DNA of 56,221 bases from a virus (lineage: Duplodnaviria > Caudoviricetes): IMG/VR virus record IMGVR_UViG_3300020045_002855, positions 1 through 56,221 of that record. One strand, given 5' to 3'. Under the pieces are notes generated by a model that was given only the letters and a program-made list of their open reading frames with translations, did not search any database and was not told where the DNA came from. Shown piece by piece: positions 38,345 through 56,221 of this stretch. Position numbers and translations under genes: made by a program. The first letter of the stretch is position 1. Every line of letters starts with the position of its first letter.

Positions 38345-38420
38345 TGGTTGCGTAGACTGGCCTTGAACCAGTGTCTTCCAGGGGATGTACCTGTTGCTCT
38401 ACCTACTGAGCTACTACGCG
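38345..38420 (-). tRNA. Initiator-like tRNA (CAT) with a non-canonical anticodon loop
   Basis: 76-nt cloverleaf, CGCGTAG/CTACGCA acceptor with C1:A72 mismatch, encoded ACCA; loop TACATCC lacks U33 and purine 37. Confidence 0.75.
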
Positions 38421-38427
38421 GAATCTG

Positions 38428-38507
38428 TGGCCCCTTCTGCAGGAATCGAACCTGCGACGCACACTAGCTGCGCAACTAATGCCGCTCTGCCACTGAGCTA
38501 AGTCGGG
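38428..38507 (-). tRNA. tRNA-like gene with an extended anticodon hairpin and no readable anticodon
   Basis: Canonical D arm (GCTC-AGTGGCA-GAGC), T arm (GCAGG-TTCGATT-CCTGC) and CCA; 22-nt anticodon arm; two acceptor-stem mismatches. Confidence 0.65.
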
Positions 38508-43107: not shown

Positions 43108-43182
43108 TGGTCTCAGCAACAGGAATCGAACCTGTATCTAGCGCTTAGGAGGCACTTGTTCGTTCCATTGAACTATGCTGAG
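43108..43182 (-). tRNA. tRNA-Arg (CCT)
   Basis: CTCAGCA/TGCTGAG acceptor, loop CTCCTAA, T loop TTCGATT, encoded CCA. Confidence 0.93.
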
Positions 43183-43186
43183 AGTT

Positions 43187-43261
43187 TGGTCTGCCCTGCC
43201 GGAATCGAACCAGCATTGTGGAGGTAGAAGCTCCGTCTATTATCCGTTATAGGAAGGGCAG
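43187..43261 (-). tRNA. tRNA-Arg (TCT)
   Basis: CTGCCCT/AGGGCAG acceptor, loop CTTCTAC, T loop TTCGATT, encoded CCA. Confidence 0.92.
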
Positions 43262-43265
43262 TAGT

Positions 43266-43341
43266 TGGCGCGCCGGACAGGATTTGAACCTGCGACCGAT
43301 GGCTTATGAGGCCACAACTCTAACCGCTGAGTTACCGGCGC
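43266..43341 (-). tRNA. tRNA with CAT anticodon (elongator Met or Ile2)
   Basis: GCGCCGG/CCGGCGC acceptor, loop CTCATAA, T loop TTCAAAT, encoded CCA. Confidence 0.92.
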
Positions 43342-51744: not shown

Positions 51745-52779
51745 ATTTTAAGGGGAGCCTCCTGTTATTTGCAGGGGGGTCAGAATTCTTGTAGGGATTG
51801 ATAACTGTTTTTGTTATTTCTCTGCAATGTTAGCCAAATATTACTTAGGCATTTTAAATTTCTTTGGTTTTAGACCTTGGATTTTGAATAGATTGGACAA
51901 GCTCTCCTATTCAAAATCCGGCTTTTTTAGCCGCCAGTATAAAAAATATGCATTTGTGGGGTGTTCTGAGCACCATAGGAATTTCCCTCTATTTTTTGTA
52001 AAAAAGCTTCCTTAGATGCTTTTTTAACTAGGACTAGCTAAATAGTAGCTTGTTAGATAGTCATTTTTAGCTGTATTGAATAGGAAGTTTCCGGTGTGAA
52101 ATATTAGATTTTTCTAAGGAGGTATCCGGCGTTTGCCTGTCTTCGCTTGCTCCTGTTTGTTTTTGGAGCGGGTTTGTTTGGTTCTTATGGTGTCTTGGTA
52201 GGTGCTTACATATATATTTTGATGTATATGTAATTTGTTGTTGTTTTACTGCCTAAAAGACTTGCTTTTCAGCCTTTTTATGGTATTTAAATCAGATCTA
52301 AAATCTAAAAGTCTAACATTTTATTAGATTTAGATTAGATTTTATATTAGAGGGGGGGGGTACCCCTTAACAAGAGGCGAGAAGAAATATTAGAAAAACC
52401 GTTTTTAAGGAATTTTCACGAGGCGTGACTTCTAATAATCCAAATAAAATATATATCAGTTCTTTTTTTATTAGTTTTAGATTAGGTTTCAGATTGTTAG
52501 AACTTGACTTTGCAGGAAGAACTTGTCGAAATTCAACCTGCAAAGACTTGTCTAAAGGCTTGCAAAGGCTTGTTTTGGGCCGTTTGAGCCCCTTAAATAC
52601 GAAACCCAAGCGAAGGTAGCCGGACAAGAAAAAACGGCTCAAAAGCCGTTTAATCCTCTTAATCATCTTCATTTAGTAAGGTTCAAACCTTACTTTTTGA
52701 TAGCCATTCTTATTTATTTTTCAAAATACCATATTTTGGCCTATATAAAGGACTTTTGTAACTGAATGTAACATCTATG
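51745..52779. other. About 1-kb AT-rich non-coding region (origin or DNA-transfer/packaging signal candidate)
   Basis: No credible ORF; TCTAA/TTAGA repeats in inverted orientation, G9 run, GGGGTACCCC palindrome, several hairpins. Confidence 0.55.
52626..52651 (-). terminator. Intrinsic terminator ending the right-hand gene cluster
   Basis: On the - strand AAACGGCT-tttg-AGCCGTTT followed by TTTCTT. Confidence 0.65.
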
Positions 52780-53901: not shown

Positions 53902-54037
53902 GTTAAACGCACGTCACAAAACCATTGCAGATTGTGACGTGCGAAATAGATAGGAGTGTAAGGGTTGATGGCATCAATCGTTTCAGATAACGCCATCAAC
54001 TGGACCTTGTTAATCAGGGTCCAGTTTAGGTGTGACA

Positions 54038-54667
54038 TTAAGCCGCCTCAGATTCCAGCGCCGCAAATTCAGCCGCAATCGCTGCATCCAAAGCATCGCC
54101 TTGCAAAGCCTCTACGGGGGCCGTGGCGCTACCGTTTTCGATAGCCAAGGGGTCGGCCTCAACTGCCTCAAAAGTCGTGGCTGCAGCCACTTTGGCATCG
54201 AACTCAGCAGCAGCTGCAGCCGCAGCAGCCGCCATGTTCATTTCCCCCACCAGGACGGCATGGTTCAAAGCATCCAGCAGAGCACGCTTTTCGCCCTTGA
54301 ATGGCGCAGGCAAGCCCTTCTTGTTGAGTGCCTTGTCTTTGGCATTCAGACCGGCAAACACACTTGACCATGCGGCGCGGTTTGTCATGTGTGGGTTAAC
54401 CACGCGGCCAGTGGTCAGGTCCATATCAATGGCCGGATGGGTCACGAAATCCGTGAAAAGGGCACCAAACACCGCCGCGCATTCGCGGGCCAGTGGGGCA
54501 AATTGCCCATTGCCCCACCACTTGACAGCGTGGGCATTGTTCACCTGTTGCCGAACGACCTTGTTAGAGGAGAGAGAACCCGCCATTTCTGTGCGTTGGG
54601 TTTCTACCCCCTTTTTCGATACCTGCACGATTACACAGGATGCATCAAACTTGGAGATATTAGACAT
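54038..54667 (-). CDS. Hypothetical protein with an acidic Ala-rich tail
   Basis: 209 aa; AAGGA RBS; flanked on both sides by hairpin chains. Confidence 0.75.
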   Translation of the reverse strand: MSNISKFDASCVIVQVSKKGVETQRTEMAGSLSSNKVVRQQVNNAHAVKWWGNGQFAPLARECAAVFGALFTDFVTHPAIDMDLTTGRVVNPHMTNRAAWSSVFAGLNAKDKALNKKGLPAPFKGEKRALLDALNHAVLVGEMNMAAAAAAAAAEFDAKVAAATTFEAVEADPLAIENGSATAPVEALQGDALDAAIAAEFAALESEAA

Positions 54668-54889
54668 GGTAAGTTCCTTTTAAGTTTGCGCCTAGATAGT
54701 GGCGCGGTATCAGTGCAAAACGCACTAAATAGGCTTAATGCCTATTTAGTAGGTTCTAATCGGGTAAGTGCTTCAAATATAGGGGCGCAAACCGGCCTAT
54801 GACAATCTGTTTAGCTAAAAACAGATTGGAGGCTGTAACCGTTATGCGGTTACAGTGGGCAGGGTTTAACCAGTATTCAAGGGAAAACA

Positions 54890-55111
54890 TCATTTAATTC
54901 CTGTAAGTGCGGCAGCAAGCATGCGACCCACCAACTGTCCAATCTGGGCAGTTGGAGACTTGTCGCCATCGTTATTGCGGGCGAACGATGGCCCAAACGT
55001 TGCCAGCGCTTCGGCAGCGACGGCAACGCGGGCGGCAGGGGAGCTGGCCAACTCCCATTTTTGGGCCAGTCCTGCCAGCAGGTGCTGGCCAAGCGCGGTA
55101 TCGGGGCTCAT
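54890..55111 (-). CDS. Hypothetical protein
   Basis: 73 aa; ATGA-coupled to the upstream gene. Confidence 0.5.
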   Translation of the reverse strand: MSPDTALGQHLLAGLAQKWELASSPAARVAVAAEALATFGPSFARNNDGDKSPTAQIGQLVGRMLAAALTGIK

Positions 55112-55506
55112 GCCCCACCTTCCACAAAACCGCCATGCTCAAACACGGCGGTTTTCACTACCGTGCCGTCCGGCTGGACGGTTTCGGTGCTCTTACGCAC
55201 CGAGTAAGCGTAGAGGGGCGTTATGCCCACTGCACGAAGGGCCCGCTCGAGCGGGCCCATCAGGTAGGGGGCCCCACCGATTAGGGCGTGGGTAGCCCCT
55301 ACCACCGTTTTGGGGTCGCAGGCTGGCCCCATGCCCCTTGCCGCGGTAGACGCAGCAAGGGCGATACGGGTAGCCTTGTCGGCTACCTCAGCCTGCGTAG
55401 GCAGGCCGTCGAAATTCAACAGGTGGGCCAGCTGGCCCGGAAATTCCACCACACCAGCCGCCACTTGGGCGGGTGTGGCTGCGTGCTGCGTTAAATTGAT
55501 AATCAT
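55108..55506 (-). CDS. Csx20/Csx15-like protein, candidate viral ring nuclease (anti-type III CRISPR)
   Basis: N-terminal INLTQH..TP.Q, central ALIGG, C-terminal AYSVRKSTETVQPDGTVVKTAVFEHGGF; resemblance judged by eye. Confidence 0.55.
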   Translation of the reverse strand: MIINLTQHAATPAQVAAGVVEFPGQLAHLLNFDGLPTQAEVADKATRIALAASTAARGMGPACDPKTVVGATHALIGGAPYLMGPLERALRAVGITPLYAYSVRKSTETVQPDGTVVKTAVFEHGGFVEGGA

Positions 55507-55571
55507 GAAATTCCCCTCAAAGGCAAAATTGCCCGTAAATGCGCACTTAATGTGCGCATTAACTGGCTATC

Positions 55572-55832
55572 TCAACCCTCACTCGTTAGAGTGAGACTGT
55601 GGGCTTTTGCCCACTCGCGCATTTCTGCGCCCAACGTGCCATTGCATGACACGTTGCAGAATCCGAAGCCGCCGCAGGGCGACAGCTCCAGAACCCGGCC
55701 AAACACCAGCACTGTGTTTGGCCACTGGATACGCTCTTCGTATCCAGTTTCGTCATCGAACCGCAGTTCGACTTCACCCGGACGGGTGACGTGAGGTAGC
55801 CCGGAAAGGGCTACAGAAATTTCATAGCTCAT
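55572..55832 (-). CDS. Hypothetical protein
   Basis: MSYEISVALSG...; AGGAG RBS. Confidence 0.55.
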   Translation of the reverse strand: MSYEISVALSGLPHVTRPGEVELRFDDETGYEERIQWPNTVLVFGRVLELSPCGGFGFCNVSCNGTLGAEMREWAKAHSLTLTSEG

Positions 55833-56221
55833 GGATTTTCTCCTGTGTGAAATAAACACGACGCAACCGCCTGTCCGTAGAGGGGCGGTTAAAGCGTATT
55901 TATTTATCGTGCATGCCGATATATCGTTATTAAAACAATATTTAATGGCAAACCCCTATGATGCAGCATATGTGCAGGGGGCACGTTTCCGGGGATTAGG
56001 CCGGGTAAATCAAAGTTTGAATGGGGATACCCTCTAATAAATAGTTAAGCCCGTTATTCAACGCCGGGCAGGGTTACGTTACCAGTCATTCTCTGCACTG
56101 GTGGCAATGGGTTTTCTAACCTATTCAAATATGCATACAACACGCCATATGCAAGGGCGATATAACCGGTTCGTTAAACCGGGCAGATATTGGTTACATG
56201 ATTGCATTACGCAGCGCACGC

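Follow-up and report, generated by a model that had tools for sequence, protein, structure and literature searches.

Does the virus represented by IMG/VR record IMGVR_UViG_3300020045_002855 encode an enzyme that destroys the second messengers of type III CRISPR immunity? The question is raised by a 132-amino-acid open reading frame (ORF) near one end of this linear virus record, which was analysed over its whole length (56,221 bases, ~73% complete according to CheckV; hereafter the window). An initial annotation had proposed that the ORF encodes a new Csx20-like ring nuclease with anti-CRISPR function. The ORF is present in the ORF list, with N- and C-terminal sequences exactly as that annotation quoted them, and it is a real gene rather than a chance frame, because a word-indexed protein search found 824 candidates, 711 of them with E <= 0.001, and because its predicted structure has a mean predicted local distance difference test score (pLDDT) of 93.9.

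Analysis of the sequence and of structural models suggests that the 132-residue protein is probably a stand-alone cyclic tetra-adenylate (cA4) ring nuclease with which the phage counteracts type III CRISPR immunity. It would act as follows: expression from the phage of a homodimeric CARF-like protein of the Csx20/MJ1673 family; binding by the dimer of cA4 made by the Cas10 of a host type III CRISPR system; metal-independent cleavage of cA4 to linear products; and a type III anti-CRISPR effect, in that cA4-dependent effectors would never be activated or would be switched off. We infer the binding of cA4, its cleavage and the effect on CRISPR immunity from the relationships described below.

Relationship to Csx20 and the PF27247 family

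Judged by its sequence, the protein is a full-length, distant homologue of Csx20, and it is placed in the Csx20/MJ1673 superfamily by full-length profile homology, a conserved His/His/Gln/Arg core and a Gly-Ala loop. The NCBIfam model CAS_Csx20 (NF040559) matches the protein at E 3.9e-6 (27.3 bits, residues 92-128 only), and the PADLOC Csx20 model matches it at E 1.7e-6. The NCBIfam model also matches 58/58 aligned family members at E <= 0.01 (best 3.7e-12), its match in other members covering profile positions 2-121 of 124. Bona fide Csx20 was found over the curated cut-off (138.6-165.1 bits) in 16 of 301 genomes from the phylum of one carrier, and hhalign comparison of the family with 15 of these 16 sequences aligned 113 columns, almost the full length, with a probability of 97.05% and E 7.8e-11. 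The profile similarity to Csx20 suspected in the initial annotation is thus found with both models and at the level of the whole family, and it extends to a shared core of residues.

The residues that are invariant both in the viral clade (58/58) and in Csx20 (15/15) are H8/H7, Q14/Q13, G78-A79/G75-A76, F122/F116 and H124/H118 (numbered in the 132-residue protein and in Csx20, respectively); R104/R98 is kept in 57/58 clade members and Y99/Y93 in 50/58, each alongside 15/15 Csx20 sequences. The window's copy has an intact frame and keeps every family-invariant residue. His8 and the arginine of the SxR motif (R104), which had been singled out for mutation, are conserved on both sides of the comparison. 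The protein resembles Csx20 in length (~125-130 amino acids) and in its H/Q/GA/Y/R/F-x-H-x-x-F core, and differs in belonging to a separate clade and in being phage-encoded without cas genes. The Csx20 pattern given in the initial annotation was mostly right, although its 'DG...K' part suits the viral clade better than Csx20 proper, the 15 fetched members of which start with hhhFSHxLTxxQ and end with TTKRxxxE...RVFxHVRFRxY.

A tree of the window's protein, the 15 Csx20 sequences and proteins from 133 loci with at least 100 profile positions (shorter fragments were dropped) places the Csx20 rows together on one side of a branch with a Shimodaira-Hasegawa-like approximate likelihood ratio test value of 100, apart from the 134 other rows, among which viral and cellular labels are mixed (24 changes). 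One metagenome-assembled genome (MAG) contains both a true Csx20 (157.3 bits, beside a Cas10-like frame) and, on another contig, a member of the clade.

The family that carries the 132-residue protein, PF27247 of Pfam 38.1 (named 'MJ1673' in the Atlas), is large and mostly viral. The window's own protein and all 120 proteins among the matches listed (of 711) have a precomputed assignment to PF27247.1, the nearest Atlas clusters are 60-82% viral, and the best non-self match is 57% identical over 97% of the query. An exhaustive HMMER search found 1643 representatives of clusters at 50% identity with E <= 0.001, 1121 of them with E <= 1e-10. Two peptide patterns matched 217 stretches in IMG/VR, of which 196 were confirmed as relatives; one pattern matched 64 stretches in 185,579 species genomes, of which 59 were confirmed, many of them in Saccharibacteria or Paceibacterota MAGs. 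Cultured phages contributed relatives in 4 of 50,697 records: Rhodothermus phage RM378 (43.2% identity over 97%), Pasteurella phage Pm86 (half-length), Fusobacterium phage JD-Fnp4 and one uncultured record. Three viral models in BFVD matched at E <= 0.001, the best with a template modelling (TM) score of 0.81 and 47% identity. A local Pfam scan at E <= 1, made with a copy that has no PF27247 model, returned a chance match to DUF6011 only.

The candidate is not as new as first thought: Csx20 in phages has been described (PMC12409355, PMC13551039), and the family is already in Pfam. The gene is accordingly not of a new kind and adds no new principle, since the idea is in print and the family is known.

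Predicted structure and proposed mode of action

The AlphaFold2 model of the 132-residue protein, built from a 58-row alignment, combines the mean pLDDT given above with a predicted TM score of 0.84; a control model of Csx20 has a pLDDT of 93.6. Both models have the same order of elements, b-a-b-a-a-b-a-b-b, ending in a long C-terminal beta-hairpin. Foldseek found nothing in the PDB at E <= 0.001, and the search for a solved relative by sequence found none (best E 1.6); among the best solved structural matches, which are weak, are the Crn1 CARF ring nucleases (Sso2081 / Sis0455) and the CARF domain of Cam1. The predicted fold is compatible with the CARF-like class to which Csx20 is reported to belong, a structure by itself being no proof.

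The protein is predicted to form a symmetric homodimer. An ESMFold2 model with two molecules of adenosine monophosphate included has an interaction prediction score from aligned errors (ipSAE) of 0.69, compared with 0.00 for the best control; among proteins of solved structure, 20 of 30 pairs and 1 of 23 single chains attained this mark, counts that hold only roughly, the calibration having been made without alignment or ligand. Three runs agreed in at least 97% of contacts, with a partner pLDDT of at least 87. The predicted interface is symmetric and comprises residues 76-88 (the MIGGAPYLM motif), 99-103 and 125-132, so that the conserved MIGGAP motif lies within it. Two or three copies of the domain per chain occur in 18 of 262 fetched relatives, which a dimeric working unit would lead one to expect.

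The tandem-domain relatives include some with long C-terminal extensions that have no Pfam family, and a Pfam scan of ten long relatives for fusion partners gave DUF4116 in one and otherwise sub-threshold noise. Tandem Csx20-like domains parallel the idea that a duplicated Csx15 gave rise to SAVED (bioRxiv 10.64898/2026.10.26.761840). Two tandem copies of a Csx20-like gene, with identical scores, were also observed in a Methylomarinum MAG (G321:C3:48319-49223), which has two Csm1 genes on other contigs.

The same fold and dimer would serve equally well for a cyclic oligoadenylate (cOA) sponge that, like some Csx15 proteins, binds cA4 tightly, cleaves it slowly or never, and so sequesters the signal, and the viral clade is without the QGD loop residues that are invariant in Csx20. 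We consider a sponge unlikely, if less so than the two alternatives discussed below: the two histidines and one arginine that are essentially invariant in Csx20 and the viral clade alike argue for conserved chemistry rather than mere binding, it has been argued in print that cOA production by type III systems is too high for effective sponging, and Csx15 has been reported as not seen in phages.

Other ring nucleases of viruses have been described: AcrIII-1, AcrIII-2 (a viral SAVED protein) and 'AcrIII-3', a viral Csx15 that has been proposed. The 132-residue protein is like AcrIII-1 / Crn2 (DUF1874) in the proposed model of a small viral homodimer that destroys cA4 (PMC12409355, PMC13551039), but its predicted fold appears to be of a different class, a CARF-like Rossmannoid. 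Membership of AcrIII-1 / Crn2 was rejected on this ground and because the Pfam scan at E <= 1 contained no DUF1874 match; no search that was run linked the two, in agreement with the earlier view that they are unrelated.

Connection with type III CRISPR systems

According to Hoikkala et al. 2025 (PMC12409355), Csx20 is a cA4 ring nuclease, the activity having been shown for one Csx20, and it also degrades cyclic tri-adenylate (cA3) at a high enzyme concentration (10 uM); of 28,114 phage genomes, 4 carry it. A csx20-aca14 operon is reported among acr genes of Pasteurella multocida (Nucleic Acids Research 2026, PMC13551039), and the same report proposes phage csx20 homologues as co-opted counter-defence genes. 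The role proposed there for phage and prophage csx20, in operons regulated by Aca14 (a ribbon-helix-helix, RHH, protein), is the one that we propose for the window's gene.

No Cas10-palm2 or RAMP match was detected anywhere in the 56,221-base, ~73% complete record; the gene is, as the initial annotation had it, a stand-alone viral gene with no cas genes nearby, and by placement in a type III locus it falls outside Csx20 sensu stricto. Likewise, none of 50 viral records carrying a family member has a RAMP gene, including 10 records that are at least 90% complete (the sample, L002-L051, being 50 of 80 viral loci kept from the 196 confirmed).

The link to type III CRISPR comes from cellular genomes: 50 loci out of 59 were sampled, the other nine being second contigs of included MAGs (L085, L115, L126, L139) and L135, L136, L137, L138 and L140. 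The family gene and Cas10 share a contig in only two of the 50 genomes: in L104, the Csx20-like gene lies behind Cas10-palm2 and four RAMP genes, in frame after WYL and WCX domains; and in L116, it has a Cas10-like gene with RAMP fusions on one side and a Cas_NE0113 gene on the other. These two proteins are nested among the viral rows of the tree and are 66% and 62% identical to viral rows. Because they lie in type III loci and are nested among viral sequences, sequence evidence ties the viral clade, beyond Csx20 proper, to type III signalling.

The frame in L104 (8645-10387, a Synergistaceae MAG) is 580 amino acids long and contains the WYL, WCX and Csx20-like domains. It could encode a fusion of a ring nuclease with a regulator that senses a ligand, or the fusion could be artefactual, the high-GC frame being poor in stop codons.

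Several results weigh against the anti-CRISPR ring nuclease that we favour. The 27.3-bit score of the protein is far under the curated equivalog cut-off of NF040559 (70 bits) and comes from the C-terminal 37 residues only, so that by score, too, it falls outside Csx20 sensu stricto. Residues W37, S38, Q71 and D73, invariant in Csx20 (Q71 and D73 in its QGDFGAT loop), are not kept in the viral clade, which has invariants of its own at T6, K118 and G126; therefore, the substrate or the chemistry could differ. Cas10-palm2 exceeds its cut-off in only 15/50 cellular genomes with a family member, an upper bound because the model also fires in Escherichia coli, such that some of the matches are probably false; Csm1 exceeds its cut-off in only 5/50; and 25 of 26 genomes of at most 1.6 Mb, mostly MAGs of the candidate phyla radiation, have no Cas10 match. 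The DNA polymerase of the window's phage is only 27.8% identical to that of its best relatives and points to no host, so that a host with a type III system is an assumption of the model. Finally, no assay of a viral Csx20 homologue was found in the literature on Csx20, MJ1673 and viral ring nucleases.

Some of these results would suit a protein that cleaves or binds other immune nucleotides (cA3, or signals of the type used by cyclic-oligonucleotide-based antiphage signalling systems, CBASS), or one of broad spectrum, with an anti-CBASS or multi-system role: Csx20 residues have given way to T6, K118 and G126, no Cas10 was detected in many of the carriers, which are small genomes, and Csx20 itself has the reported activity on cA3 (PMC12409355). 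This alternative is less likely than a sponge. Two clade members lie inside type III loci and none was seen beside a CBASS cyclase; a weak whole-protein match of one A1 member to the NCBIfam CBASS_cyclase_a model (E 0.0041) is probably due to chance; and the MAG contigs with the gene may be mis-binned phages, given the mixing of viral and genome labels in the tree.

Two related Saccharibacteria contigs, from genomes without detectable Cas10, have two genes of ring-nuclease type side by side: next to the Csx20-like gene is one for a 500-amino-acid P-loop protein that has a Cas_csx3 (Crn3) domain at its C-terminus (L118:10554-12056 and L109:1964-3460), and in both the P-loop gene is followed by a gene for a MYG1-family exonuclease.

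A small ORF on the same strand lies just downstream of the relative at 64 of 139 loci. Among ten such ORFs, four have a helix-turn-helix (HTH) or RHH domain over the Pfam cut-off, a proportion that is not an unbiased rate because the ten were picked by eye from the 64-locus list. The RHH ORF that overlaps the Pm86 copy is one of the four. By analogy, these putative regulators resemble those of acr-aca operons; the window's 73-amino-acid downstream ORF has no HTH or RHH match in any library searched. Pasteurella phage Pm86 illustrates the comparison: its copy shares 50.9% identity with residues 74-128 of the window's protein, placing it in the same clade, and is likewise followed by a small overlapping ORF; however, the Pm86 ORF is RHH and its Csx20-like gene only a half, whereas the window has an orphan ORF and a full gene.

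The Pm86 copy lies at the end of the record (L171:309-699) as an unannotated 66-amino-acid C-terminal half; the N-terminal half is missing or disrupted. The ORF that overlaps it has 71 amino acids, belongs to RHH_1 and is probably Aca14-like.

Least likely of all is a role outside counter-defence, as a nucleotide-sensing or regulatory module for phage or cell or as a decaying passenger gene: it would fit the lack of any conserved neighbour across 139 related loci, where the top clusters span 12 loci (a TrmB-type regulator, confirmed for one member), 11 and 9 loci (both read by eye only as terminase large subunits), and the orphan status of the genes that flank the window's copy, but it sits poorly with the intact frame and its invariant residues, with strong conservation of the family over 1643 clusters, and with the acr-aca-like regulators in four of ten hand-picked downstream ORFs.

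Neighbouring genes and possible significance for phage counter-defence

The anti-CRISPR candidate lies 715 bases from the end of the record, in a run of four minus-strand genes (86, 132, 73 and 209 amino acids) that form a GC-rich island at 53998-55860 of the window, bounded by an AT-rich (29-38% GC), ORF-poor stretch at 51750-52750 (Table 1). Three of the four are orphans. The GC content of the Csx20-like gene is 62.9%, that of its three neighbours 56-61% and that of the whole window 47.8%. A GC content at third codon positions of 67.7%, compared with 41-51% in core phage genes, marks the gene as an accessory gene of recent acquisition.

Table 1. Features of the GC-rich island around the Csx20-like gene.
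Feature	Position	Strand	Basis or remark
Upstream 86-amino-acid ORF, orphan	55572..55832	-	AGGAG-type ribosome-binding site; GTG extension to 55859
Long stem-loop with perfect 9-bp inner stem and ATTAA loop	55519..55580	-	Inverted repeat and RNA fold
Shine-Dalgarno-like GAGGGG(AA)	55511..55518	-	5' of the start codon of the Csx20-like gene, read directly
Csx20-like gene (Pfam PF27247 'MJ1673' family), 132 amino acids	55108..55506	-	Predicted CARF-like homodimeric ring nuclease
73-amino-acid ORF, orphan helical protein	54890..55111	-	Overlaps the stop of the Csx20-like gene by ATGA
Three strong hairpins between the 73- and 209-amino-acid ORFs	54719..54856	-	Inverted repeat and RNA folds
Downstream 209-amino-acid ORF, Ala-rich C-terminus	54038..54667	-	GC 56.2%, within the GC-rich end island

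Direct reading of the sequence places GAGGGG at a spacing of 6 nucleotides from the ATG of the Csx20-like gene. The stem-loop between this ribosome-binding site and the upstream ORF folds at -29.5 kcal/mol (z -4.76; 1 of 200 shuffles folds equally well) and is a possible terminator, processing site or operator. Farther downstream, two hairpins have fold z-scores of -2.07 (54719-54755) and -5.33 (54803-54856), and a sigma-70-like promoter at 54805-54776 is a consensus match only, at 10 of 12 positions. The ATTAA loop is seen on the minus strand in two of the three hairpins at 55519-55580, 54719-54755 and 54803-54856.

The coupling of the Csx20-like gene to the 73-amino-acid ORF through ATGA is visible in the sequence (tcat on the plus strand at 55108-55111), but the suggestion that this ORF encodes a partner did not hold up. 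It matches no family in Pfam, NCBIfam, PHROGs or PADLOC, has no homologue at the 139 related loci and finds itself as the sole match in a collection of 5.8 billion proteins; its Atlas model (pLDDT 0.73) has generic helical look-alikes only. It was rejected as a conserved partner, being an orphan that is not conserved with the Csx20-like family. The 86- and 209-amino-acid neighbours were similarly rejected as known anti-defence genes: neither matches a family in the same four collections or a phage protein, and the 86-amino-acid ORF matches only itself in the protein collection.

Elsewhere, the window encodes a lambda-type tape-measure protein, a gpJ-like tip protein, a family A DNA polymerase, an SNF2 helicase, an SbcC-like ATPase and tRNA genes. 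Megablast found no close cultured relative of the phage, and the best matches of the DNA polymerase, at the identity given above, are in Vibrio phages. Two DNA runs contained only 0.09 and 0.06 of the sampled words, and no RNA dataset was listed as containing the sequence. The phage has a tRNA cluster (38345-38507 and 43108-43341), in which ARAGORN identifies one tRNA-like gene with a four-base anticodon (gcgc).

We regard it as unlikely that the viral MJ1673-like clade is a distinct and very abundant counter-defence family whose substrate range is shifted or broadened beyond cA4. Its pocket may have been remodelled, with T6, Q7, K118 and G126 for the F-S, QGD and R residues of Csx20. If so, several cyclic-oligonucleotide defences would be disarmed by one family, which would explain its abundance in phages and in small genomes of the candidate phyla radiation without detectable Cas10.

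Few viral enzyme families are known to destroy the second messengers of type III CRISPR: AcrIII-1, AcrIII-2 and the proposed viral Csx15. The viral Csx20-like clade would add one more if its members prove active, apparently a numerous one in view of its 196 IMG/VR contigs and 1643 clusters, and would then offer a compact tool to switch off cA4-dependent effectors. As an intact and typical representative, the 132-residue protein is suited to a first biochemical test of a viral member of the family.

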